From Takakia lepidozioides (lineage: Eukaryota > Plantae > Bryophyta): a DNA stretch of 25,000 bases. A program made the translations under genes and the position numbers. The stretch covers positions 1 to 25,000 of the forward strand of contig JAKLZA010000040.1 of the NCBI GenBank assembly GCA_030704615.1, in the 5' to 3' direction. The notes under the pieces are model-generated. The model was given only the letters and a program-made list of their open reading frames with translations, did no database searches and was not told the DNA's origin. Below are positions 5,471-22,507 of the stretch, piece by piece. Within the stretch, counting starts at the first letter, position 1. The number at the start of each line of letters is the position of its first letter.

Positions 5471-8400
5471 CTAGCGTCTTTTATTCCTGCCAGTGAGGCG
5501 CAGGACCACGTAGAATAAACACCGGAAAACTACTCCAAACCCCACTGTCACTCCCAAGCACTCCCACTTGCTGAGTTGTGTAATCTCCTTGGCAATTAGT
5601 ACATCATGGCCGGTAAGAACACATGAAGAAGGACTCAATCTAGCATACGAGGTGTTCCTTAGTGCTGCTGATCCCCTCATGAATGTCAGCATGGCTTTCA
5701 CAAGACTCTCATTAAATGTGGCCAGGGGAGTTCCAAAGAGAATGTCACGGCCCCTCTCATAACAAATTCCCTTCCGTTCAAACTCATTGATCAACACTGC
5801 CTCATACGGGTACTTTATGATGGACAAGTAGTGGAACCATAGCCAGTATTTGGGAATCCGTGGGCGAGAAATGAAAAATCCACTTAAAAGGAGAAAGTAG
5901 GCCAAGAGGGCCACAACCACAGTGTAGCCAAGCATAACATTGGGCATCACTGCAGAGAGCAATGTGACAAATGAATTTCCAGCCCAAAAAGATGCCCAAA
6001 CTATGAGAAAGAAGAAGAGGAATCCTGGGCCCCCTCCAGCAAGTCCCACCGCCCACCAAATAGTGATAGAAAACGCCATTGACAACAAGGCTAGAAATGG
6101 GATGTAGATTATAGCATGTGCCAGAACATATGACGATATGCGGTATGCATTGTGGGAGGTCTCTCGCATGAAGATGTAGCGCTCTTGCAGGAATACAGGG
6201 AGCGCATCTGCGCATGTATAGTATGTGGTTGACATTGCAAACGCAAAGAAACCCAACCGCTCCTGCATGCACCCAAAATTTGAAGCATTCTTGTCAGAGA
6301 TTATCTAAATCAACAATTAGGAATGATCATGGATGTGGGCAATTCCATGCCTTCAGTCCACCTGACAATTGCACATGCATATATGCTAGGGGAGTCCAGT
6401 TGCCTCAGAAAACTTAAGAGTGATCGAGATGAGTTAATTCCTGGACGAAGCCCACAATCATCTTACCATTTCAAATGTTGCTACATTTAGATAGATGTTG
6501 TGGTCCTCTCAAAGGCTGAATATTTGATGATGCAAAATTGTGGTGTAAGTCAGTGCAAAAAAACCACCTGGACACATGTTCTTTGACCAATGATGGATCT
6601 TTTTTGTCATCATGTGCAGTCGAAGATGGTGCTAAGTACAAGGGATTTTGCTAGAAACCTTTGGTTCCCTCAGTGCTCTGATCAGCAAGGTGACTGAAGA
6701 CAGTACATTTTTTTGAGGTCTGGCATTGAAGTCTTCTTCATTCATCTCATATCTAGGAATCACTAGATAGACACAAAATTCAGCTCAACATGAATGATCA
6801 GCGAAGTACCTGAACTCCTTTGGGGCTGTGATCAAGGTTCCAGAAAATGGTGGCCAACAGAAAGCCGGTGATCATTACAGCGGCCAACCGCATCAGGAAA
6901 AGCTCTGGCATCCGTTGGATATTGATGACTGACCTGCGTATAAGCACAGGGATTTCTGCCAACTGAGAATTTGCAAACTTAGACACCATCTCCGCACTAT
7001 CCTTAGCGGCGCTGGCAAATTGGGTGGGATGCACCAAAGCTGAAGGGCGGGCGGCCACCAACTTCCCCCTCGAAATGGATGCAGTAATCGCCTCACGAAC
7101 ATCCGGGAAGCCCACCCGGGTCTCAGACCCCTTGGAGTCCGAAGCCCAAGTCTTGCAAAAATCAACAAGCTGCTTTACTCCCCCCTGAATGCACGGACCC
7201 ATGATATCAGCAACTATTTTGATCTTCTACGCAATACACCACATGAGAAACATCTTAAGATGCTGGCATCATCAAGATCCAGCTGTCATTCAAACTTATA
7301 ACATGTATAACCAGCTGCCATGAACACCGAATGTCCTGTGCAGCGCTCATCTGTTATTCATCAGGGATGTTGTTTTAACATGGACTACTGCAGATGAATC
7401 TCGGAAACATGTGACCAACTACATGGTGGATGCTTGCAAGGAAGAATATAGAAATGATTGATACATGTGCATGCTCCCCTGCCAGGCCTGCCTGTGTTTG
7501 TTCAAATATGTGCACACTAGCAGATAGGACTTCAAGTTGTAGCTACAGAGAATCTTGCTCGTAAGCAACGCACCTGAGAAATGTGTAATTCTTGGATGAG
7601 ATCAAGAGCGTGCTCAGTACTGTTCTCGTGTTCAGGTACAGGCCGCCCAAATCCCTCAAAGAAGGTATGGAGTCCTGGTGGGGAGCCATAGTAAACCTTT
7701 TGGCCAAAAGCTAGGAGCATTAGGTGGTCAAGCAGGCCCATAATGCGGTAGCTCGGTTGATGGATGGACAAAATTACAATGCTGCCAGTTTGTGCAATTC
7801 TCTGGAGTGTTCGAACCTAACAACCAGACCCAAAAGAGAGGATTTCCATGGTTAGACAACTGGTGTGCTCCAGGCCTAGTCTAGAAGTAAAGACTTCGGA
7901 TGTTCTCTACCAGATTTTTCAAGGTACATGGGTTGTAGAGCTGTAGCTCGGAATATAGTGTGAGATAGTCCATGACGAAGCCTAATCCTGAGCAAGAAAA
8001 ATTAGTGAGCTCACGGGCATACCACCATGAAAGCACTGGTGGAGTCAAGGCCTGAAGTGGGCTCGTCCAGGAAGAGGATGAGAGGGTCGTGGATGATGTC
8101 GATGCCTATAGAAACACGGCGCCGCTCGCCACCTGAAATGCCGCGTCGGCCTTCGTCACCAACGATGGTGTCGCCCACAAGCTGCAGCCCCAACTGCTCC
8201 AGCAAGTTGAACACTCTTGCCCTCTTCTTTTCACTCGATTGGGACTTTGGCAGCCGAAAGAACGCAGAAAACATAAGAGTTTCTTTTACCGTCAGCATAG
8301 GGAACAGCAGGTCGTCCTGCAGGGTGCTGGGGACAATGATTAGCACGCGCAACCTGGTCCGAGCCAACAAAAAACAGCAGCCAAACATGTGGAGTAGTCA

Positions 8401-9606
8401 CAGCGTCTGCAAACCGACCTAGTGCCATTGTACCAAATCTTCAAGAGCCTTTGAATGCTTGGTATACACAAAACCCTATAGAAGCAAACAGCGAAAGCAG
8501 TCTCAATTGCCCTGTGGCAAAAATGACTTCTCTGATGCCCAGGAGTGAGAATACGTGTGGGTAATGTTGTTTGTCCTTGATCAGCTGCAGCTACCAGATG
8601 GAAATCTAATACCCCTAGTGTCTTAAAACTCGGTACTACTCGATCAATGAAGACAGTAATCAGACTTGGTCTCTCTGAAAAGACGGGAGAAATTGAAGTG
8701 AATTACCTGCATGACGTATGCTGAAATGCTACGAAGAAGTCGATTACTAACTTGCTCTCCGTTCAAAGTGACTCTTCCCTCCAGATTCTCAATCCTCTGT
8801 GCAAGGGCATCTATAAGTGTCGACTTCCCTGAGCCGCTAGGACCCATAACAGCCAAAATTTCTCCATCTCTTGCTTCTCCCGATAGATTGTCCAGCAGGC
8901 GCTTTGTTGTATAACTGTGTTGCAAGGAGCCCAGAATACTGCCAGCTGCAGGCTTCGTGAAATTCGGGAGTCTCCATTTAGATCTGTTCTTTTTCACTGT
9001 GTACGTGAGTTCATGGAACTGTAAAACCAGGAGGGGTTTCCGAGCATCTGTCTCCTCCACTACATTTTTCAGTTCAATCACTTTGTGGGCTGGCTCCAGC
9101 AGCTGGAAAGACTCACTATGATCTGAAATTAGTGACGAACTGAGCTCTGGAATTCGTAACTCACCGTAGTCTGAAGTCAGATACTCGCCGAGCTCTGGAA
9201 TTTGCGGTTCTCCAAGCTCAGGAATTTCTTTAAATTCCTTTCCTAATGCTCCCTGTATCTTGTGCAAAACCTCTCCCATTCGTGGCCCTACTGGAGGCCC
9301 GGATGCCTCCTCAGTGCTGCCAGAAAGCCCATTGACACCGGCCACTTCTGGCGACCTTCCAAGCAACCAAGAGGATCCCTGCGCATCAGACGTGGAAGAG
9401 AGGTCCGAATACAGGCTGCCATGGCTGGAGAGCTGGAGGGGGGAGGCTAAAATGTTTAGGGAAGCCACTGGGTCCCCAGTAATCTCAGATCCAGATGATT
9501 CCGCCTTCCGCTTATGCCTTTCTGCTACAGCAGCATCTAAAGATTTATGACTTTCTACCAATTCTTTTCGGCGAGGAACCCTTGGTTTACGGGGCTGGTT
9601 CTCCAT
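5471..9606 (-). CDS. ABC transporter G family half-transporter (WBC type), AtABCG1/2/6/16/20 (OsABCG5/RCN1) clade, 867 aa
   Basis: Exons 9606-8707, 8316-8023, 7816-7574, 7184-6810 and 6262-5471; all four introns are GT-AG, phase 0. Motifs: Walker [11 protein letters not shown]-loop YVMQDD, signature [12 protein letters not shown], Walker [13 protein letters not shown]-loop SIHQP, C-terminal ABC2 membrane domain. Clade-diagnostic strings [65 protein letters not shown] and [16 protein letters not shown] match the ABCG1/2/6/20 group rather than STR/STR2. Confidence 0.95.
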
Positions 9607-11975
9607 TCCTCAGTGCTGGTTATTCTTGCACACTGGTTGTGCCGGTCTCACGGGAGTCCTGAGTTATGGCTAGCAACCAAGGTTCTACTCAGGTGAAGAC
9701 AGCTTACAAGGGAATCCGCCTTGCTGAAGAAATTCATCCTCGCAGCTGCCTGGGTTTAAGATTACTGGTAGGCAGTTGTGCATTTCTATCTTTGAACTTT
9801 TCACCCTCTTACCAGGGGATAGGCTATGAAGAGACACAAGATATACAGAACGCGGATAGGAAATGGATCCATGGTACTTCTTGCACTGTGTCAGAAAGCC
9901 TGTGAGTTGGAATGGGTTGGTGTCACTTTGTGTCAATTGGTGCGAATTTGTGCGAGCTACAGTGTGTAAGAAAACGTATGAAGGATTTGGTCTCTTTCAG
10001 GCAGAGTGAGAGTCTGGTTCTTGAAACAGATGGGGCAGAGGTTGTAGCTTCACAGTAGCACTGTGTGGTAGATTGCACGTCCCAGTATTAGCACAAGCTG
10101 CCCACATGGGAACTTTCCTGAAAGAAATTACAAAGAGAAAGACAGGAGAGAAGACTCCAGGGGGTGGGGAATAATCAAAGATCTTTGATCGTAAGGACGG
10201 TACTGTAGGAACTGACTTTTAAGTATCCATAGTCTGGCACAGACCATTCCCGCCCAGTTTCAGCATCTACCTGCAAAAATACTCCACCCAAGACACACGA
10301 CAGCGAAATAGAGAAGAAAAGGTGTTCGCAATCGAGCATCACCAGAGACATCCCTCCCAAACTGCAGCATCTAAGTGCCTCTGGCCAATAATCGCCAACT
10401 AACAAGTAGGGGGAAGAGGGACGGAGCGGCACGGTGCACAATTCACATCAGCTCTAAAAACTCAAGCACCCTATATTGCCTCCATGAAAGCTCCCCAGTG
10501 AGATCTCCAAGGCAGAGGGTGGTGGTGGTGGGTAACTGAGAGAGTCCTGGAGGCACTCCGGTGGGGTAGGAGAGGCAGGCTATGACAATCCCCCAAACTT
10601 ACCCTGCCAGGAAGATTTCACAGGCTGCATGCATCGCCCACCTTCGATTCCCCAAACCTACCTCCAACGCAATGTGCCACATGTGGTGTGGGTGAATGAA
10701 GAAACTACCCACATGATCGATCTCTGTTTCACCGAGTGTGCCCTTCCCACCCTCGTGACCATACCGTTAAACCAACTCCTACGCTGTACTCCTCCACATC
10801 CTTACGAGTACGCATACTCAATACAACAATGCATACCTACCTTGGCGTACACCTACTCCAAAGATCCCATTCAGCGGACATTCCACCCCGAGAATGGAAT
10901 GGAAATGGAAGGCCACCTACGGCAGTTCATGCCAGGGACCTCTTCATTGCAATGATAATAGTAGATGACTCTCACATGCACAATTTGGCGGTTGCTTTAC
11001 TGTCCCTGGGTGTCTTCCGTTCCGTGATCTTTCAATAGTCAGGAATTGCTGGCAACGCATATGGAATGCACCCTTTCAAAGGAAAAGTCATTTTGTCGCA
11101 CCAACATGTTCTACCATAACCTCCTCTGATCTCAGCCCCAGAGGTCCCTTGAATGATCAGTCAGCTTCCGCATGGTACCTTGCTCAACGCCAATCAAGTG
11201 TGGCTTCATGTATCGAGGAACTGGGTTATGTACTATGGTGCTTTCCTTTGGTTTGGACCATCCATCAGTACCTAAGCCATCATGAACTCAAATCCAGCAT
11301 GAGGCACAAAACCTTGTTTCCTAGGATGTAATGGAAGGAAATTTTACATCCAGCATGGTGGAAGAATGGGCAAGGTGATGTGATAGTTACCCACTAAACA
11401 AGGCCAACTATATGCATTCTAGTGCTCAACAGCACAAAAGTTGGTAACATGTGAAAGCTGACTGTCCCTGGATTCCGCTATTTCCATGCAGAAACTTTCT
11501 TGCCCTTCCACCACTTCCCACTGAGTGACTGATGAATTTGTATTTACACACTCAGAGATAACCGTGATTCCACTTTGACTGGCTAACACGTTGTAACTAA
11601 GCTGCAATTGTTGCTCATCTACAAAGCATCCATTCATGGCAGTGAGGAGGCCTGGTTGACTTGAGCACTGGTGAGTATGAAGCAAAGTTTCCTCTTCATG
11701 CACAGAGAAATCTCAAAACATAACTGTGCATGAACGATCCTTACTAACAAACCTAGTGTTGAACACAATATGAGTGAAGATATCATCCTCCGAAGACTTG
11801 TCTTGCCTATGCGGAGGTGAATGACTTGATATCTTTGTCCGCAGAAATTAATTCAGAGTCATACTTGGACCTGTTTGAATCAGATACCAAAGATACAGTG
11901 GATGGAAGAACAAAAATGTGCATCTTCAATCAGTATCTTGTGGTCTGAAGTCACACTCCAATTTCAGAAGTTTGC

Positions 11976-14900
11976 TCAATGTGTGTGCGGAACCATTTCA
12001 CACCTGCAGGCAAGCAACAGATGTTTCCTGTTCTTAGTGCCCCTCCAAAACAAATTTGCACTTCTGTCTGATAACTCGTGACTGCTTATCACACCACCCC
12101 TTTCCTGCCGCTATCCGCTCCTGACAACCTAGGGTCCGCAAAGTGTAATGGATTGACCTTTCTTTCCAATTCATTTCATTTCTTTCTCTATGGAACCCAC
12201 TCTCTCACTGAGGTCTTTCACTAGGCAGATCAGAAATGTTTGGCAGCCTACCTGCACGAGGCATTCACCCTTAGAACAATAGTTCTTATCTCTCTGGTTT
12301 CCTGTTTTCTCTCATGTTTTTCTTTCCATTTTGTCCCATAAGCTCTATGAGCTTTCTGCGGACGTTATAAAGCACCATTTCATTTCATTTCTCTTGAAAA
12401 TACGCCTGCTGTCCACAGAAGGTAGGACATCCTCAGGCAATTGGGTGGCTTGGATGTCCTCGGCTTCCGACCAAGGTCCTCCTGATGGTTGAATGTGGTC
12501 TCAGTAGAAATAAAGCAGTGGCGCTACAATGTCTACATACTTGAGGCCGCAGAGAGCAAAATCTAACATACTACTTGGCTATATAGGGTGTATGATGTTA
12601 CCTGCAAGGACAAACATCCCTAAAACCTCGAGAAATAACGCCAACTGCAGCTGATGCAATCTCCTTCCATGCAACTTCTGAAGGAAGTTCATCTCTGAAT
12701 GAAAGCTGCAAAAGATGGTCTGCAGCATGCAAGCCACCCACAGTTACAGTAGCTGATATTCCAAGAAACATAGTGGCAAAGCCCACTACAATCTTGACGA
12801 GGGTTCAGGACAGGTTGGGGGGAAGGGTAAACACACCTTCTTTCAAAGACGAGGCCACAGTCAAGAAGAGGATTCCTCGACCATTAACGCTGCGCATGAG
12901 AGCCGCATTCAGATCCCCCTGCAACATAGCACAGTGTAATCCATGTCACAACCACCTCACTATGGTCTTTGGAAGCATGCTATTCCATGACTGGGATATA
13001 TAAGTGCAAAGATTTAGGGTAGCAGCCAAAACAATCACCACAAACTGGTGGGTGAATTTGCATTTTAGACCAACCCATCAAGGTGTTCTGCTCAAAACCC
13101 CACTCTAACAAAGATTGGAGTTCATAGCATGTGGTAAATCAGCTGGAAACTGCTCATACGCTAAACAAGCTATATTCAGACCTCATGGACACCTCGAAGT
13201 GGAGATCCAACAAGACCAAACACAACGAGCAAGTTGACATTGTTGGCTTCCCCTTCTTCCTGACAGCTGCCGTAATATTTGAATCTACCATCTGATTGCA
13301 CCAGCTTGGCAAACTTGTGTGCTGCTTCTACTCCATGTGATAGGGCCCCGTTGCTGCAGCCCCCAGCAAAGTCCTCACACACCACTGCCCGAGAAAGAGC
13401 TTCTTGCAATGACATAAGATTTTGCCAATCTTGGCCAATCAAAACCAGGCACGTGTTGGGTTGGCTCTCCCAGGGACCCCCAAACAAAGCCTCTGCCCTC
13501 TTCTTGCCACTCCAGTGAAAGAGGAACCGAGTTTGCCTGTAACAGACAGTACAAAGTAAATGACTATCCTGTCAATACACCCAAGCAGTTCTGCAAACGG
13601 TTTGAAGAGAATGGGCCATCCATCCAAAGCACTGGGCCCCTAACCACAATGGCAACTTGTACACTTGTAGCTACCAACAACAAAGCCATCAATGCACTGA
13701 GTGATCTACTTCCATCTACCAAACTGCCCAAAGATACACTGTCCACATCCGTTTGTGCATTCACAACATGTTACTTTCCAGAATTGCTTTAGTGATCACC
13801 AGTCCTTTAAATGGGTTCGTTGTTAGAATGGAAACACCTGTATCAAGGTGAATAGGAATTCATATGATTCAAATTACAAAACTTTAGAGAGAGTCGCTGC
13901 CTCAGATACAATATGATACCCTAAAAATGCACACTGATCTCTCGTACAAGAGCTATGCTTCCATGGTAATAGGCCTCTGCTTTCCTGTTGGATTGGCTTC
14001 GCATGTACATCACAAAATTCCTATACTCCATCGTCAAGAATCCCACTCAATGGTGTAAATCGCTTTCCATGACTACAATAAAACATCGTGAGTTGTCAGC
14101 AAATTACCTGCTTTCCTCAAACCAAATGACTCCTTTTGCTCTGAGCAGACCTTTCAATGTTCGCATTTGATTCACAACTATTGTCTGGAAAGCTGCCAGA
14201 GAGATCGGTCTAATGCTAGAGAAGCTGACCGCAGAAAACGTCTTCCCCTCACCATCATGACTGCCTGGAGAAGTGGAACACCAACAATAAAAACTTTCAT
14301 TACCAGTCAGTTTTTAGAAGTGGGTCCGTATTACTTCCTTCATGGACATGCTCCCTCTTGTCTATTATAAGGCCACTTCTAAGTACGATGTAATATTGTA
14401 AAGACTCGATAGAGTGCTTGAAGTATTTCCAGTCTCATTCCCACCTGATTACTCCACCCTCCCCCTCCATTTTTGCTTTTGCTCACAAAACTACAAAAGA
14501 GAATTTTAAGAGAGGAACTTACCCATAGTGGATGCCTGTTCAAGTTTAGCTTTCCTCATCTTAGATAGGAAGTCCTCATCACTCTCACTAGCAACATAGC
14601 TTGAACCTCCCTTCGGTCCAGGTCGAGATGAGATTGCCGAAATTGCTTCATGAGAAAGAAACCCAGCAGTGGAGTTTGCACTGGTTGTAGCAAGAGGCGG
14701 AGGGAGCTCAGGCACACCAACATTGATAACCAAATCAATGGGAACATTGCAGAACCGACATCGAACAGCTTTGGTGCCTCCAGTTGCTTCATCCACACGG
14801 TCTTCGGCATCTGAGATAACACCTAAGGAGGCTATATCACACCTGCCTCCTGTTAGGTTAGGATCTCAGCCCAGAGATAGAGAAACAAGAAACCAGGAAG

Positions 14901-16147
14901 GGAAGGAAGGGACAAGGCTAATGCTTGCAATAAGGTCTAATGAAAAAACATGGAAAGCAAAAGAAGGGTAAACAGAGACAATGTATGAGCATTCAGGATT
15001 TGGTGAAGTGCAAGAGAACTCTCACAACAAGACAACTGACATGATCTAATTATTTCCATAGCCACTCCTTGAATGAGAAAGAGGGTAGAGCAAGAGATAC
15101 TTGTTGATGAGGACAATGTCCGCAATGACTAGCTGTTGCTTGGCAATAGGAAATTCAAGAATAGTGTTAAGAGCTTCCGCATCGACTACCGTCACTATTA
15201 TGTCCAACCGCACTCCTGCAGCTTCCAAATCTTTGGCTATTGGGAGCGGGTCCGCCACTCCTGATGTCTGCATCATAGCATAAATAGCTTAAAACCCCAA
15301 CTACACACAGCTGGTTAAAAACATTTCGCACTCGGCTCTTTTTGAGCGCTTGTATGACTGAAAGTGCACAGAGTTGCATCACACAAGCCTTCAAAATTAT
15401 ACAAAATAAAACCAACACAGTTTATAGCTTAAGATCCAATCAGACAAATGCGAACAAGACAATAAAGTTAACCCTGAAAATCTCCTTCACAATCACCAGA
15501 GAACTCGCCAAAAAAGAGCTTTGACCACTAATGCAGACCTCAATTACGAGATAATCGAAGTTATGTTTGCTGCTAATGACGTCCCGTACCGCCTCCTTCA
15601 AGTTGCCTCTCACATTGCAGCAAGCACATCCTGCTCAGAACCCAATTCCGTCATAAAAAAAATCGATCCTTGATTTTGTGATGACCACAAGAACATAGGA
15701 ATGATGCCTCTGACTACCATCACCAAGTCTGGATATCGACAGAACTATCAATTTGACAAAATTACCCACCACACAATTCCCCACTGATCTGTTCTAGAGC
15801 TGACGAGCAAGCATAAATACTGAAATACTCTCAAAAGTGAACAACATATTCGTACCATTGGAGAGCGACACTGACCGTAAGCCAAGGGCGGCATTCGAGG
15901 CAGAAGAATCCAGCAGAAGAGAATCAATATCGATTTCTGCCAACTCATTAACCAGAACAGCAACTCGCAAATCCCCTCTTTGCTTCATGATGTGGTGCAC
16001 CAAAGTGGTCTTCCCACTTCCCAGGAAGCCTGTAACCAAAGAACATCCCATACGCCCACCTGTCCCTTCCTTCTTATCGAACACTCGGCTCTCATATGCC
16101 AGGGACATCTGATTGCTTTCTTTCATAAAACCCTGTAAATCCTCCAT
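11976..16147 (-). CDS. COG0523/CobW-family G3E P-loop GTPase (putative Zn/metal chaperone) with CobW_C domain plus an extra C-terminal decarboxylase-small-domain-like module, 536 aa
   Basis: Exons 16147-15856, 15630-15539, 15267-15101, 14842-14523, 14264-14108, 13536-13182, 12918-12837, 12719-12602 and 12003-11976 total 1611 nt with all phases consistent. Motifs: Walker A TGFLGSGKTT, VLVNE, metal-binding GCACC (CxCC), Walker B LVIETSGVADP, VTVVDA, G4 NKCD, CobW_C LLRAKGVIWF...RFLFHWSGK...CLVLIGQ. The last micro-exon is less certain: unspliced read-through stops at 12598-12600. Confidence 0.93.
12329..12391 (+). mobile_element. Short 3'-terminal copy of the same LINE/SINE family in the last CobW intron (antisense to CobW)
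   Basis: Near-identical to 19133-19200: identical 20-mer TGAGCTTTCTGCGGACGTTA, the AAGCTC-TAT-GAGCTT hairpin and an (ATTTC)3 tail. Confidence 0.75.
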
Positions 16148-16157
16148 TTCTATCTCC

Positions 16158-16162
<5 letters not shown>

Positions 16163-16227
<65 letters not shown>
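16163..16227. repeat. (CT)n/(GA)n microsatellite, ~65 bp with one interruption, 15 nt upstream of the CobW start codon
   Basis: Directly visible CT run from 16163 to 16227; reads (GA)n on the CobW sense strand. Confidence 0.98.
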
Positions 16228-18279
16228 ACAGGCGAGTTGGGCTTGTGGGTCCTCTCCTCCGTCCTCAACAACACACCGATCGATCCTTCTGTCCGATCTG
16301 CTGTGTGTACAGGAGACGCTACGGATCGAAAAATCCCACACTTTTTTCACTCCTGAATTTCTCAATAACATATGGGTCCAAATTCTACCGTCGATTTTTC
16401 GAGAATCCACGGTTTCAAAGTAGCCCGTCCCTATTGATTAGTTACAGAGGGACCAGCCTTTGTAGAGCAACGCTTCAAGGACTTGTATACTCGGCTCTCC
16501 ATATCAAAGCTGCAAGAGCTGGTGCCGCCTCTTTTCAGGGAAAAATCTCATTTTCCCTGATGTGGGTCCGTCCTTGGAAGTTTTCTCTTGCGGTAGAGAT
16601 AAGAAGGAGGGGAGGAGAAGAAGAAGAAACAGACAATAACTACATTTTCACATCGGGTATTTGCTTCACACCTACCATGGGCGTGAATTCAGAGTAGACG
16701 GTTGACAGAAAGTTTGTATCGTGTTGTTCGGGGTTGTTAACAATGCCTCTGTGATCTCGCAGAGACAGGAAGAGAGAGAAGAGTTACTTATCACTTAGGC
16801 ATTCAAGATTAACATAAGTGTTTTTCTCGATAAGTCCGTGTTGGAACATACACATCTTCTGGCGCCAAAATTGGTGAACCAATCTGAATTCCCACAATGA
16901 AGCCTTGCTATTGTGAGGCACTGAATCGAATCTGGTAGAATCTACCAAGAGGACTTCAGCATCCCAAATAATGGTTCGTCGATTCGTCCTCCTTGGATGA
17001 TCGCAGTCGCTCAATTTCGTAGAAGTTATTTTCCCTTTGCCTGTAGTTGGAATGACGTTTTTGTTTCTCACCTTGTTCGTATATCTTGGTCCAAATGCTA
17101 GTATAGAACTCCTACTTCCCTCAAATATATTTATATCTGTACAGGGGAAACTGTATCCACAACTCCATATATAAGTTAAGGTCACAGTCAACATGCCGTC
17201 ATTTGAATATTGAGGAATTTAAGGGGTTGTTGAGCGCTGATTCTGCCAGCGAGACACCTGATACTGTCTGGTCAACATTCACAATTGTCGATGCACTTGT
17301 CAAGCTTAATTTTATATTGTTTCTGCATTTTAGAGCAGTTTACTGGGCTGTAGCACCTTTCCAATGTGTTTCAGGGTGCTAGATTGCTTAGTACATTCAA
17401 TGGCCTGTCAGTGTGAGGCATGCTTGTGACAGCCGGATTAAACCTCAATCTCTTTCCAATCATGGGTTACCAATACTGAGACTGTCACCCACCCAGGCTG
17501 GATAATATCCTGCAGGCATATCACAAGGCTATGCAACTGTGTACTTGCTTTGCAAACCATACAATGTGGCAATCCAATTCTAATGGATTGATTTGCCTTT
17601 TTTCTGTGACCTATAATACGGCATGGAATTCAAACATTTGGTCTCACCATTCATATGGTCCCAAATAAAGTTTCAGTCGACACGTCATGTAATCAACATG
17701 ACAGCAATTGGATTTGAATTGACATGGACTCCAGCTGGAGAGTACATAAAGTATATGTTTCCAGAGGTTTGTTTGATCTGGTTGCCTACATGCTTAGATC
17801 GAGTGTAGACCGCCTTTGGGACAATAATTTGGGTGCTCAAATGACTTCATTTTTGTGTGTTATGTTGTGGTGCACCAATTGATGTGAAAGTCCTGTCAAC
17901 CTTCTAATCAACTTCAGTCCTCGACCTTATTGGAATTTCCATGGAAGATTGGTTTTGACTGCAAGGAAGATAATGTTTTTTGTGTGAAGTCAGTATATCA
18001 TTAAAGCAAACAATCAAGCTTTGTCAGGGCTTTAAAATTACATCTAAGTGCTGCCACTGAGAGAAAGAGAAGCCATAGGAGTGCGTTCACTGTATTTATA
18101 CTTTGTTTGTATATTGAGGGTATCCTCCAATTCTTGTCCCTGGTCATTTTGAATTGTGAGGCCTTCTTTTCACACTTTGGAAACATTTTTCTGTCTCGTC
18201 TTTCTCTCTGGTCAGCACTTGAGGTAATGCCTAGAACCCTGGCCCTCCTTTTGTAAGAAATCTGTCTTGATCCTCAGGG

Positions 18280-18529: not shown

Positions 18530-19212
18530 CCCTTAATGAAATCACTTATAAGACTTCCCTGAACTTGTTTCCTGTGTGTGACATGGGCGAGGACCTTAAG
18601 GATGATCTCAAGGGCCTACCTTTGAATTTTAAAAAAATGCAGAGAGGAAAGGAGAATGTACTTGGCCGATGTGCAGGCAGCCTGAAACATTTTCTGATAC
18701 ATTGTCTGGGATTATCTCACCAGAGAGTGACCCTCTTCAGTAACATCAAGAAAATTGTTCCCACACCTCTGTTCACCAACTTGAAAATCTTGACCTGCTG
18801 AGAAGCCGCCTGTTTGGGGTCCGATTGCTGGGCAGCTCACACACAGCAGCTCACACACAGCAGGTTGATGCTTGTGTGAAGGGCTTTCTAGAGGATATCT
18901 GGAAAACCCAAACTAAGTTTCTTTAACGTGGTGAGTCTCACTGCTGCAGAGAGCCCCTCACAAAGATAGTGTCTGTTGCCTTTGTTCCGCCCAAACTGGG
19001 CATGGGGTCTATGGCCACAAGACTAGCACTTATAAGTACATTCTTTCTCCTCCCCTGGGCCCTTTTGGCCCTCCATAGACGTAATAAAATTTTATCTTTT
19101 TGGGCCCAATTTTTTCCTTGTTCCTTGCTTTCTTTTGGCCCACAAGCTCTTTGAGCTTTCTGCGGACGTTAAAAAGTACTATTTCATTTCATTTCATTTC
19201 TTATTTCTCTCT
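18530..19212 (+). mobile_element. Degenerate 3' end of a non-LTR retrotransposon (LINE): ORF2 C-terminus, 3' UTR, stem-loop and (ATTTC)n tail
   Basis: The translation contains LKHFLIHC...R..LF (HxxxxC half of the LINE C-terminal zinc knuckle), then ...VDACVKGFLEDIWKTQTKFL*, with an internal stop and a 14-bp duplication. It ends in the AAGCTC-TTT-GAGCTT hairpin followed by (ATTTC)4. The 3' end recurs elsewhere in the window. Confidence 0.7.
18832..18862. repeat. 14-bp tandem duplication (GCAGCTCACACACA)x2 within the LINE remnant
   Basis: Directly visible; it frameshifts the LINE ORF2 remnant. Confidence 0.9.
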
Positions 19213-19978
19213 CCCTTCCACACACTCACACTCACTGTCTCAATGACCTATATCCTTTGGGGTCTGTGGCTGCTAGACAATAGCCCCGTGCAGCTTCCGA
19301 GTACATCTCCCTGTTCATCCTTTTTAGGTAGATCCTTTCAGTCAAAATTACGTCCATGTTAGGTGGTACACTAATTGGATCACCAAATGTTCTGTCTGCA
19401 GGCGGGACTTGTAGCATTGACTAAGCAGTTTGGTTTGATTATACATGAGGACTTCGGAGTGCAATGGCTCCTTGATGAGTTGTAACATAAACATAGAGGT
19501 TGGATCTTAGGCTGCAGGGGGACTGTATGACGAGTCCAATTATTTGATACCTTCGTCCAGGGTTCAACCATGTGTGAGACTGATCAAGCTATGATGGTTG
19601 GTAGTTGTCATGGGTGACTGGTTGGAATTTTTGTCCCATCTGACCGTAATCAACCATCAGGCAGACTAAGCATTTCTCTTCTGGTCTTTTGCAGAATTAC
19701 AATGTTCTGTTTGAGAAAGAGGGGATAGCCAACTTGAGGAGTATGAGTTGGGAGGCCCTTGAGCTCTAGGGAAGAGGCTAGGGTGGTTTGAAATCAAGAA
19801 CCTTGGCCACGGATTTCTTATTGATTCCTTACTGACTGAACTACTGTTGGGCATGGTCTTACTTGTGACAGTAACCATAATGGCCCTTTTCTGTAACTGA
19901 TTTCATTCTCTCTTATACCTTACATATGAGCAATAATGGGTCACATTACCCACTTCACACTTCTGTGAGCTGGCCTCC

Positions 19979-22507
19979 ATGATGCACTCGCCTGATAAGG
20001 ATAGAAGCTTCTCAGAGTGTTCAAGCTCTGCTCCCAGCCATGGGGGGCCTTCTGATCAGAGATCTGTTCAAACACTCTTGTGGCACAAAATCTCGGAGTT
20101 GTTGCAAGTCCCAGAGCGGGATGCTGTGAAGGCAGAGCTAGGAAGAGACTTGATCGAAGAAAATGAACTTCTGTTCAATGAGGCTGTTGCTTTGGAAGAG
20201 ATCTTGGCAACAGTTAAGCAGGATACCAACCAGCATATTGTATCACAACATCTTTTTGACTCACCTTTGCGCCTGATGCTGGAAAATGAGGTCCGTATTT
20301 TAGTACAAGCATTGCAGAAAATTGGTACGCCCTTGCCTCAAGATCTTGTGTCATTTCCACCGCCCTCAAAAAGTAACCAGCGTCAAGCTCTTAGCCATGT
20401 CAATAGCAACAATATCTGCATATCATTGGCAAGTGAAGCTTACTGGTTAGATGATATCGAAGGAAGGAGTGTGGGTGGAGAGGTGGCCGTGAGTGAGTCC
20501 CCGGTGGTGGATCGCCTTAGTGGAGCTGTCGGCCAAGACAGGGAACGATGCAACTTTGATAGTACCCTATTACGAAACTCTTTCCCTGATGACCAAAATT
20601 CATTACATGTGGGAACTCTAGCAAGTCAGAAGCCCTTGGCACAGCTTCATGTTTCAACAATTCCTGGATCCAAGGGCCTGCCAGATTCAATCCTTAACGA
20701 CCACAAATACAAGCAAACACTCGACCACATAATCTGCAGGGGCAAAGTCCAAGATTGGAAAGAGGAGAAGTGCTCTCGAAGTCTGTCATCAAGGGCATCA
20801 ACTACCAGTAGCAGCATCAGCAGTGACAAGGGGAGCATGACTGATTTTTTAAGCAGTCCTGGCTCTGTTTCTTCATCCCAGAGCTTGTCTATGGCCCCTT
20901 TTGATCCAGCTTTGGTGGTGCATTCGGTGGCCCCTCACTTGAGCTTATTTCATATTGATGCAGTGGCAGATAGATTGCACTCTGCTCTTGCCACTGAGCA
21001 TGTATGGATCAATTCTTCATCTGCTTCCGCCTTTGTTCTTTCTCATCTCCACAGAGACTTAATTGGGAATCACACTTCGGCAAAAATCTACATACGACTT
21101 TGCTTGGCTTAGAGAGTTGTGTTCGGTACATTAGTTGCTTTTGGGTCAGGTCACTTTTTTAGATGTTCAAGTGGAGAATTTTCTACATCCTAGCAGTTTC
21201 TTTAAGATATGATTGCAATGGAGAGCCAAGGTTTGCACGGCACGGGGCAGGGCAAGGGTACACCCTTGATGTCCTCTCCAAATGTTGGACTTTATACCAG
21301 TAGGATCATATTCCCTTTGAGATAATAACCCACAGAAGGCATTGTGGGGATGTGAGACGCCATGAGATTGCCACAGTGCTCACACCATAGCTCATGATAG
21401 TCTGCTTTCACATGCTTGAATGTTGATTTAAGGGCTGACCCTGACAGCATAAACAACTTGAGTTTGATTCCTGGACTGCTTTTCTGGCCCTGTACCTTGC
21501 AATGAATGTGGCACATGTTGCAGTGGTTTGCCCTATACTGCTGATGGAAAAGGACTGAGAGAAAGAGAAAGATGTGGACTGGGAGCTGGGTTGCTGCCGC
21601 TGCCACTAAAGACTGACTGCATTGTGGATGATGTGCTGCAGGCTGCTCTGCTTGAGGACGTTGAGCATTTGCGAGCTTGCCTTGAGGAGTCCACTGACGT
21701 TTACTCAGGGGTGAGGGATTGTCTTTGTATGTACCTCCCCCCATCTACCTGTGAGTCATGCAGATTTGGAGCTTGGAGCTATAGAAGAGGCGGTTTCCTA
21801 GTGTTACATAGGTCTCAACCCTGCTAACTTTTATTGTTCCAAGGTACTGCGACACAGTTGACTGTTTGGGAATTAACAAAGACGCAAGGTTTATGGAGGA
21901 TGGGCATCAGACCTACGGAAGGCATATTGAAGATTGGCCTTAGTGTGTCCCTTGGGTAGACCGCAATATCATCCTTACATGTATGTATATATCTTGTCTT
22001 GATGGTCAGATACTTCACTGAAGCCTGAAGAATTGCAGGTCCATCTCACTAAGACGAGGATGTGACATACTAGCTAGCCTTTTGCAGGTCAAGAGTGAAC
22101 CCCCATCATTTGCAGACATGAAGAATTGTGGGCGAAAGCTAGAGGAGCACTTATGGAGTCAGCAGTTCCATAAAGCACCCACAACTGGACCCCAGCAGCT
22201 GGCCAAGACTCGCAGACATTCAAGTGTTCGACCTTTGCAACCTGGGCTTATTTCAAGTTTTGAAAGTTCGGATGGTCAGACACCTCCACTTCCCCATATC
22301 AAGAACAGGAGACAAGCAATTGTTGGTGGATCCGTGAGAAGTGATCATGCACCTCTTCCTTCAACTGGTGGAGTGCGGAGGAGTGAACAGTTACCACCTG
22401 TGTCAAATGGGAGAGTTCTTTCAAGTAATCACGAGATTTTGGGGACTTTGATTTCCAAGAATTCCAAGGCTCCCTCCCAAAGACCGAATATTGTGAATCA
22501 GAGGTGA
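19979..22507 (+). CDS. CCDC24: CCDC24-like coiled-coil protein (~503 aa)
   Basis: Exons 19979-21001, 21642-21710 and 22088-22507, all phase 0. Blocks LLWHKISELLQVPERDAVKAELG..LIEENELL..EA.AL, LMLENEVRILVQAL, HLSLFHIDAVADRLHSALATEHAALLEDVEHLRACLEE and EPPSFADMK match recalled CCDC24 blocks ([77 protein letters not shown]). The 3' end is uncertain because of a possible donor at 22504. Confidence 0.82.

Follow-up and report, generated by a model that had tools for sequence, protein, structure and literature searches.

A CobW-type GTPase of the green lineage carrying a third domain homologous to the small domain of aromatic amino acid decarboxylases

Introduction

COG0523 proteins hold a metal at a CxCC motif and hand it to a client upon GTP hydrolysis, as described in the accessible portions of three reports (PMC11672702, PMC12891040, PMC13368412). 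This motif, located between switch I and Walker B, is the defining feature of COG0523 according to the available text of Zhang et al. 2023 (PMC10642216). For most of these proteins the client is unknown; where it has been solved, for ZNG1 and CBP1/ZNG3, the choice of the client is made by an extra module. In the parts of PMC11672702 that are accessible, the add-on of ZNG1 is an N-terminal peptide whose CPxLxP motif binds the zinc finger of MetAP1. The available part of PMC12891040 gives a WW domain as the add-on of CBP1/ZNG3, a protein that binds the regulator CCM1/CIA5.

The aromatic amino acid decarboxylases (AADC) belong to the pyridoxal phosphate (PLP) enzymes. As reported in the accessible part of PMC8003434, the PLP site and Lys303 of AADC are contained in residues 86-360, and Arg447 touches active-site loop 1.

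Here, we describe a gene from Takakia lepidozioides (Bryophyta), located in a stretch of 25,000 nucleotides referred to below as the window (contig JAKLZA010000040.1, assembly GCA_030704615.1). A preliminary description had proposed that a CobW metallochaperone is fused in this gene to the C-terminal small domain of a group II PLP-dependent decarboxylase.

Results

Gene model and transcript support

The CobW-fusion gene lies on the minus strand and consists of nine exons, from 16147 to 11976 (Table 1). All eight introns are GT-AG, and the open frame of 536 residues encodes successively a CobW GTPase, CobW_C and about 113 extra residues. Transcript support was sought in two public runs from two studies, which are RNA only by guess and whose contigs carry neither level nor strand. 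In each of them, one contig (2124 and 2155 nt, respectively) skips the eight introns at the modelled places and joins all nine exons. Four contig joints are flagged "between: not known", and the gaps of 81 and 91 nt in contig coordinates correspond to exons 7 and 2. The joint between exons 8 and 9 (12600/12001) is present in both runs, the three bins of intron 5 (13571-14071) have zero depth, and the sampled words of 11900-16200 were recovered at 0.37-0.38, approximately the coding share of the stretch. Moreover, the end of CobW_C and the start of the new domain are both located inside exon 6, so that the fusion junction is independent of the splice model. A chance frame or a mis-splice as the source of the fusion is ruled out by the intron-skipping contigs together with this exon 6 junction. 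The proposed fusion is thus borne out, and the joints between exons 6, 7 and 8, which it had been suggested to check, are present in the contigs of these presumed RNA runs. On the other hand, the protein had been thought to end at 12602, and a conserved tail in fact continues on exon 9.

Table 1. Position and content of the features of the CobW-fusion gene in the window.
Feature	Position	Strand	Content
Exon 1	15856..16147	-	Start codon, conserved N-terminal motif, Walker A, GTPase start; Pfam CobW E 8.8e-15
Conserved N-terminal motif (residues 12-23; Met14, Glu19)	16079..16114	-	In exon 1
Walker A / G1 (residues 40-48)	16004..16030	-	In exon 1
Exon 2	15539..15630	-	CxCC metal motif (Cys99-Cys102, 15628-15617), first half of Walker B
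Exon 3	15101..15267	-	Remainder of Walker B, GTPase core, first half of G4 (NKxD)
Exon 4	14523..14842	-	GTPase end and variable linker with Ser-His-Glu (residues 247-249, 14655-14647)
Exon 5	14108..14264	-	CobW_C, first half; Pfam CobW_C found on homologues
Exon 6	13182..13536	-	CobW_C remainder (to ~13389), junction, AADC-like small domain start (from ~13343)
Exon 6, small-domain part			Helix 1 and strands of the AADC-like domain
Family-specific loop, residues 455-461 (P-L-x-G-[IV]-x-E)	13182..13202	-	End of exon 6
Exon 7	12837..12918	-	Small domain: second helix and strand; Asn473 in 47/48 rows
Exon 8	12602..12719	-	Last strand (Gln493, 12708-12706), last helix (Trp506), tail Cys525 and Cys527
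Exon 9, coding part	11976..12003	-	Cys529, Glu530, His534, His536, stop; ends the Cys/His tail, predicted metal site
3' untranslated part	11430..11975	-	Covered by the contigs that join the coding exons

A minor X1 contig (13017-13200, depth 2.3 versus 25.9) retains part of intron 6, and such a retention would stop the frame inside the small domain. A single T>C difference was also seen in X1 at 14677. Intron 8 contains one copy (12329-12391) of a 63-nt dispersed repeat, the other copy of which, 90% identical, lies at 19133-19195. The intron-8 copy draws 27-38 contigs with a summed depth of thousands in the two runs, which makes it a short element found very often in transcripts. Rfam matched nothing in the window, in intron 8 or in its repeat. 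The start codon is immediately preceded by an AG microsatellite (16151-16236). On the minus strand, the CobW gene is followed downstream by a multi-exon gene for an ABCG-type half transporter (5471-9609; ABC_tran then ABC2_membrane), whose N-terminal part contains four 24-nt tandem units (9111-9226) encoding Glu-Leu repeats. A gene of the CCDC24 family (19937-21112, plus strand, Pfam E 7e-16) is divergent from the CobW gene.

The CobW core

Conservation was read from an alignment of 48 rows, namely the window and 47 homologues, from which two truncated Closterium models, three cyanobacteria, isoforms and partial models were left out. The rows were picked by likeness to the family and include many close relatives, so that the counts given below overstate independent support.

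The G3E GTPase is intact, with Walker A (residues 40-48), Walker B (126-131) and NKxD (183-186), and Pfam PF02492 (CobW) matches exon 1 as well as the homologues. The best solved relative of the core is YjiA (E 2e-46). Between switch I and Walker B, the CxCC motif (Cys99-x-Cys101-Cys102) is kept in 33 of the 35 rows that cover it. CobW_C follows the GTPase: PF07683 is recognized in four homologues (E 1e-8 to 1e-12), to which the window is 45-53% identical over CobW_C, and three arginines of this domain (343, 346 and 356) are kept across the family. In the model of homologue P0027, the GTPase and CobW_C (residues 26-387) adopt a pose nearer to that of Tetrahymena Shulin than to the crystal pose of YjiA.

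The linker is 12-33% identical outside a Ser-His-Glu motif, in which Ser and His are each present in 43 of the 43 rows covering it and Glu in 41. At the other end of the protein, the conserved N-terminal motif (Glu19 in 34 and Met14 in 31 of 35 covering rows) is modelled as a helix of low confidence, and we infer that it is a candidate client-binding peptide. The CPxLxP motif of ZNG1 was not found there, the 32 residues that precede the GTPase being devoid of Cys and Pro. ZNG2 of Arabidopsis is characterized by plastid targeting and a long His/acidic linker; in the window, as read by eye, the N-terminus is short and the linker shows no His run. Since about 13 residues precede the conserved motif and no transit peptide is evident, the sequence suggests that the protein is likely cytosolic or nuclear.

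A third domain of the AADC small-domain type

Pfam gives no family for the third domain, nothing being found after residue ~390 in the homologues. As Pfam is blind to it, the proteins of the family are annotated as plain CobW or uncharacterized. An ESM Atlas search with the Marchantia domain gave no usable match. Nevertheless, sequence profiles and predicted folds identify the third domain as a homologue of the small domain at the C-terminal end of AADC. A profile made from just four domains of homologues ranked fly DDC 396-469 first (E 0.0048). Matches to P5C dehydrogenase obtained with the first small profile (E 0.24) were gone with deeper profiles. A 49-sequence full-length profile found plant, fly and human AADC-type enzymes over the last 100 residues (E 6e-6 to 3e-4). 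When a 19-sequence domain profile was run against the PDB, 15 of the 16 matches up to E 10 were AADC, TDC, TyDC, aldehyde synthases or HDC, the best one being human AADC (E 1.6e-6). HHalign against a profile of 10 cyanobacterial decarboxylases yielded 96.6% (E 6.8e-10, 101 columns), with an alignment confined to the final 105 positions of the enzyme profile. On a profile built from 10 group II decarboxylases of cyanobacteria, the domain of the window itself (residues 408-520) reached 11.6 bits, against 2.1 bits for the best of 1000 shuffles, 554 of which scored at all, and -3.9 for the reversed sequence.

The structure models are template-free and were made for two homologues, P0006 and P0027, in place of the protein encoded in the window. 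With the isolated fern-type domain (pLDDT 67), Foldseek listed 30 rows, all of them group II decarboxylases or related proteins, and all 50 rows given by VIA are PLP fold-type-I proteins (best Z 8.6). In the full-length Marchantia model (pLDDT 78, pTM 0.73), residues 385-506 superimpose on human AADC 373-480 with a Z of 14.0 over 104 residues, an rmsd of 1.8-1.9 A and 22% identity; across the decarboxylases of this type, the rmsd is 1.7-2.2 A and the identity 22-24%. The predicted fold is that of a fold-type-I small domain, with three helices on an antiparallel sheet. With almost no break, the last CobW_C helix (365-384) is continued by the first small-domain helix (387-406). This helix-into-helix junction, together with a pTM above the 0.57-0.62 that a rough bookkeeping, made without coordinates, gives for a freely tethered domain, leads us to read the domain as a packed platform. 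The blocks likened to the AADC small domain in the preliminary description are located in exons 6, 7 and 8. The homology is supported by the profiles, by HHalign and by the predicted fold, and the Foldseek comparison that had been proposed returned decarboxylase-type matches with the model of a homologue.

The absence of the large PLP-binding domain and of the catalytic Lys had also been correctly recognized: PF00282 is not found, and the match is limited to the end of the decarboxylase profile. Similarly, the replacement of Arg by Gln in the last strand holds for most of the family, since the position of human Arg447 is occupied by Gln in 39 of the 48 rows (Gln493 in the window) and by Arg in one; all 12 cyanobacterial enzymes read have Arg. 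The position of Arg412 is a Gly in the fusion protein. Because the large domain is missing and Arg447 is replaced by Gln, the third domain cannot be an enzyme of the AADC kind. Few PLP-enzyme small domains are known apart from their large domain, and the fusion represents a clear case.

Conserved features and the Cys/His tail

In land plants, the third domain (40-53% identity to the window) is conserved to the same degree as CobW_C (44-62%), whereas the linker falls to 12-33%. Several conserved residues are shared with AADC and look structural, namely Asp425-x-Arg-Phe, Phe449, Leu464-Asn465, Asn473 and Trp506. In contrast, the loop 455-461, Gln493 and a Cys/His tail are not shared with AADC. 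The loop (Leu456 and Gly458 in 46/48 rows each, [IV]459 in 47/48) falls at a gap in human and fly AADC and is longer than, or unlike, the AADC loop. The tail follows the pattern [C/H]-x-C-[R/K]-[C/S]-D, often with a terminal H-x-H. Its Cys527 is present in all 48 rows, and no other residue in the C-terminal part of the protein is invariant; 45 rows have at least three Cys/His within nine residues, and the remaining three keep only two. Ser is found at 529 in 17 rows, all of which have Cys at 521, whereas Cys521 occurs in one of the 31 others. The exchange of Cys529 for Ser together with the presence of Cys521 is probably one event, in flowering plants, as judged from these 17 flowering-plant-type rows. 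The end of the tail is poorly modelled (pLDDT below 50 for residues 515-520 of the Marchantia model), and such a tail occurs in none of the 12 cyanobacterial decarboxylases read. Independent tests of sequence, profile and fold support the domain call made at the outset, which had missed this tail, the most conserved C-terminal feature.

Distribution and origin of the family

Within the best 120 of the 762 matches of a family profile search (8000 candidates), 51 family rows are followed by a drop to bacterial proteins. The domain profile exceeds 20 bits in 48 of these 51 rows, most of which were part of its training set, the three misses being Closterium and Tetraselmis models. It does so in none of the 69 bacterial rows, the nearest of which are cyanobacterial proteins of ~320-400 residues. 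The members named come from chlorophytes (Chlamydomonas eustigma, Edaphochlamys, Tetraselmis), streptophyte algae (Chara, Klebsormidium, Mesotaenium, Closterium), liverworts, a lycophyte and ferns (Adiantum, Ceratopteris, Diphasiastrum, Marchantia, Riccia, Calypogeia) and flowering plants (Amborella, magnoliids, non-grass monocots), and cluster look-ups added members from Spirogloea, Iris and Persea. The fusion, for which a search of other proteomes had been proposed, is therefore shared by a whole subfamily going back to chlorophyte algae, a scale that the preliminary description had not foreseen. No eudicot, grass, moss or gymnosperm was met among the named rows of the matches listed, many rows carrying no name; lineage losses of the gene in eudicots, grasses and mosses are suggested by this distribution.

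Among 1.84 billion representatives, a word-free search retrieved 18 matches, of which 16 carry CobW_C. The two others (P0140 and P0148), which might have represented a stand-alone domain, look like partial gene models. In a quick tree of the core (35 family and 23 bacterial rows, fragments and the ZNG1 and ZNG2 outgroups being left out), family and bacteria are split with full support and the family roughly tracks plant phylogeny, the window adjoining Diphasiastrum in an open fork. This topology would fit one origin followed by vertical descent. On the basis of its sequences, the family is an ancient green-lineage subfamily extending from chlorophytes to monocots.

A cluster of 19 metagenome records (P0064) contains a deep-branching member, apparently intron-free and with a full domain. 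A truncated member of this cluster without the third domain (P0162), borne by a 1.8-kb contig, is labelled as coming from an archaeal MAG and is more likely a mis-binned eukaryotic piece.

A bacterial precursor of the fusion was sought and none was found in the loci searched. Over 1.05 Mb of sequence, comprising 80 CobW loci of bacteria and archaea, the domain profile had no match. In cyanobacteria, 13 of 401 sampled genomes had an AADC-type match, and the 12 loci read (L081-L092) all encode ordinary full-length decarboxylases with the PLP-lysine motif, with no CobW match in their short flanks. As cyanobacterial, plant and animal enzymes score alike (~22-36 bits), no donor lineage can be named.

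Discussion

We propose that this COG0523 GTPase acts as a GTP-gated metal chaperone or sensor, whose small domain would pack on the core and, with the Cys/His tail that it presents, provide a second site for metal as well as a surface for docking. Based on sequence and on models of homologues, we consider the chances of this reading to be about even. The AADC small domain would have been joined once, by its first long helix, to the last CobW_C helix, before the split between chlorophytes and streptophytes. Its contacts with the PLP domain would then have disappeared (Arg447 to Gln, Arg412 to Gly), and the conserved loop and the tail would have been acquired. Devoid of the catalytic part, it could pack on the GTPase core as a platform for the tail; metal held by CxCC and by the tail could be buffered or relayed, and GTP hydrolysis would release it to a dedicated client, in the way that ZNG1 serves MetAP1. 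That the tail binds metal is a prediction from its sequence, and its conserved cysteines could instead serve lipidation, disulphides or redox sensing. Zinc would be the likely metal; the metal of a COG0523 protein cannot be read from sequence, as stated in the accessible part of PMC13368412. An exact match to the zinc-deficiency promoter element was not found, and the two one-mismatch sites (1.7 expected) are not upstream of the gene. A more specific version of our proposal is possible but rather doubtful: the small domain, detached from a PLP enzyme, would have become a second, GTP-coupled metal module, its tail and CxCC forming a relay or a shared site that metalates a dedicated client. This client would have been retained in algae, liverworts, ferns, magnoliids and non-grass monocots, and lost together with the gene in eudicots, grasses and mosses. 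If true, the loss pattern of the fusion gene would point to a metalloprotein client.

Other roles for the third domain have to be weighed against this proposal. It could be a pure docking or dimerization module, using the exposed sheet around Gln493 and the loop, with a tail whose cysteines would be structural. The conservation of a loop foreign to AADC and of Gln at the former Arg447 speaks for it, as do the add-on modules through which related proteins bind their clients. In addition, COG0523 proteins may be monomers, and CobW_C of YjiA seems to block HypB-like dimers, as described in the accessible part of PMC11672702, so that the new domain could supply a dimer surface. However, the sole invariant C-terminal residue is a tail cysteine and not a residue of the fold surface, and in AADC the sheet faces other enzyme domains and is not described as a dimer interface in the available part of PMC8003434; we therefore regard this explanation as unlikely. 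The arguments from conservation bear also on the idea that the domain would be a mere passenger, kept as a fold stabilizer without function of its own. Most of the conserved residues are indeed also those of AADC and look structural, and the gene seems to have been lost in several large lineages, but the maintenance of the new loop and of the invariant tail cysteine across the green lineage makes this improbable.

The preliminary description had also suggested a link with amine or aldehyde metabolism, and none of our results points there. The domain would in this case sense an amine, an amino acid or an aldehyde, or dock on a PLP decarboxylase by mimicry, thereby tying metal status to amine metabolism. 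It is true that the small domain is kept whole and that its sequence similarity singles out the AADC/HDC group from the other PLP enzymes. On the other hand, PLP, Lys303 and the binding residues belong to the large domain, 86-360 in AADC (PMC8003434, in its accessible part), which is absent here, and Arg447, the contact to active-site loop 1, has been replaced. The genomic context does not argue for such a link either, with no small domain near the 80 bacterial CobW genes and no CobW in the short flanks of the 12 cyanobacterial decarboxylase loci. Moreover, AADCs are not known to be metalloenzymes, which makes them unlikely clients. Altogether, we give little credence to this hypothesis. A last possibility is that the protein would not be a metal donor at all but a GTPase-type assembly or packaging factor, like the ciliary Shulin with its YjiA-like module. 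The GTPase and CobW_C pair can be superimposed on Shulin with an rmsd of 4.7 A over 287 residues (Z 14.1), the overlay with YjiA reaching only ~18 A when both domains are aligned. Nevertheless, the sequence is 12% identical to that of Shulin, CxCC is retained in 33 of the 35 rows covering it, and the family has persisted in two groups devoid of cilia, the flowering plants and the Zygnematophyceae. Such a function thus appears to us as a long shot.

Under the metal-chaperone or sensor reading, the residues to be tested are Cys527, Gln493, Ser-His-Glu and the N-terminal motif. The fusion is absent from the three COG0523 genes of Arabidopsis and present in Marchantia (Mp1g21820) and in Ceratopteris, and both Mp1g21820 and the Ceratopteris orthologue are open to knockout. 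The patchy distribution of the family could also be used to find the client.

The fusion architecture was not found in print in the open literature, most subscription papers being outside the search, and the accessible text of Haas et al. 2009 (PMC2770081) mentions neither the fusion nor a decarboxylase. The initial statement that this architecture is undescribed is in this respect correct, but the family itself has probably already been seen as an uncharacterized network cluster. Indeed, by taxa only, it is probably the "cluster 4" of Zhang et al. 2023, a small streptophyte cluster to which the available text devotes two sentences and which it leaves uncharacterized (PMC10642216). As described there, this cluster shares with the fusion family the Charales, Klebsormidiales, Marchantiales, Polypodiales and Mesangiospermae, a patchy presence in land plants and chlorophyte relatives. 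The words "decarboxylase" and "pyridoxal" are absent from the accessible text of that report, where a domain of this kind is not named. For one more plant subfamily of COG0523, the extra module now has a name.

The fusion is a new architecture in the known COG0523 family, with an age close to that of the green lineage itself. With the COG0523/CobW metallochaperones (E. coli YjiA, ZNG1 and ZNG2), it shares the GTPase with CxCC, a variable linker and CobW_C, to which it adds the third domain, the Cys/His tail and the Ser-His-Glu linker motif; in place of the CPxLxP of ZNG1, it has an N-terminal motif of its own. With the PF00282 enzymes (DDC/AADC, TDC, TyDC, AAS and HDC), it has in common the predicted fold of their C-terminal small domain (373-480 in AADC), but it lacks their N-terminal and large domains as well as the PLP lysine, and carries the additional loop and the Cys/His tail. 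Finally, a parallel can be drawn with Chlamydomonas CBP1/ZNG3 (CobW-CobW_C-WW), which is likewise a green-algal COG0523 protein with an extra C-terminal module. The module of CBP1/ZNG3 is a WW domain that does not extend beyond Chlorophyceae and Trebouxiophyceae, whereas in the fusion family it is an enzyme-derived domain that has been kept into land plants.
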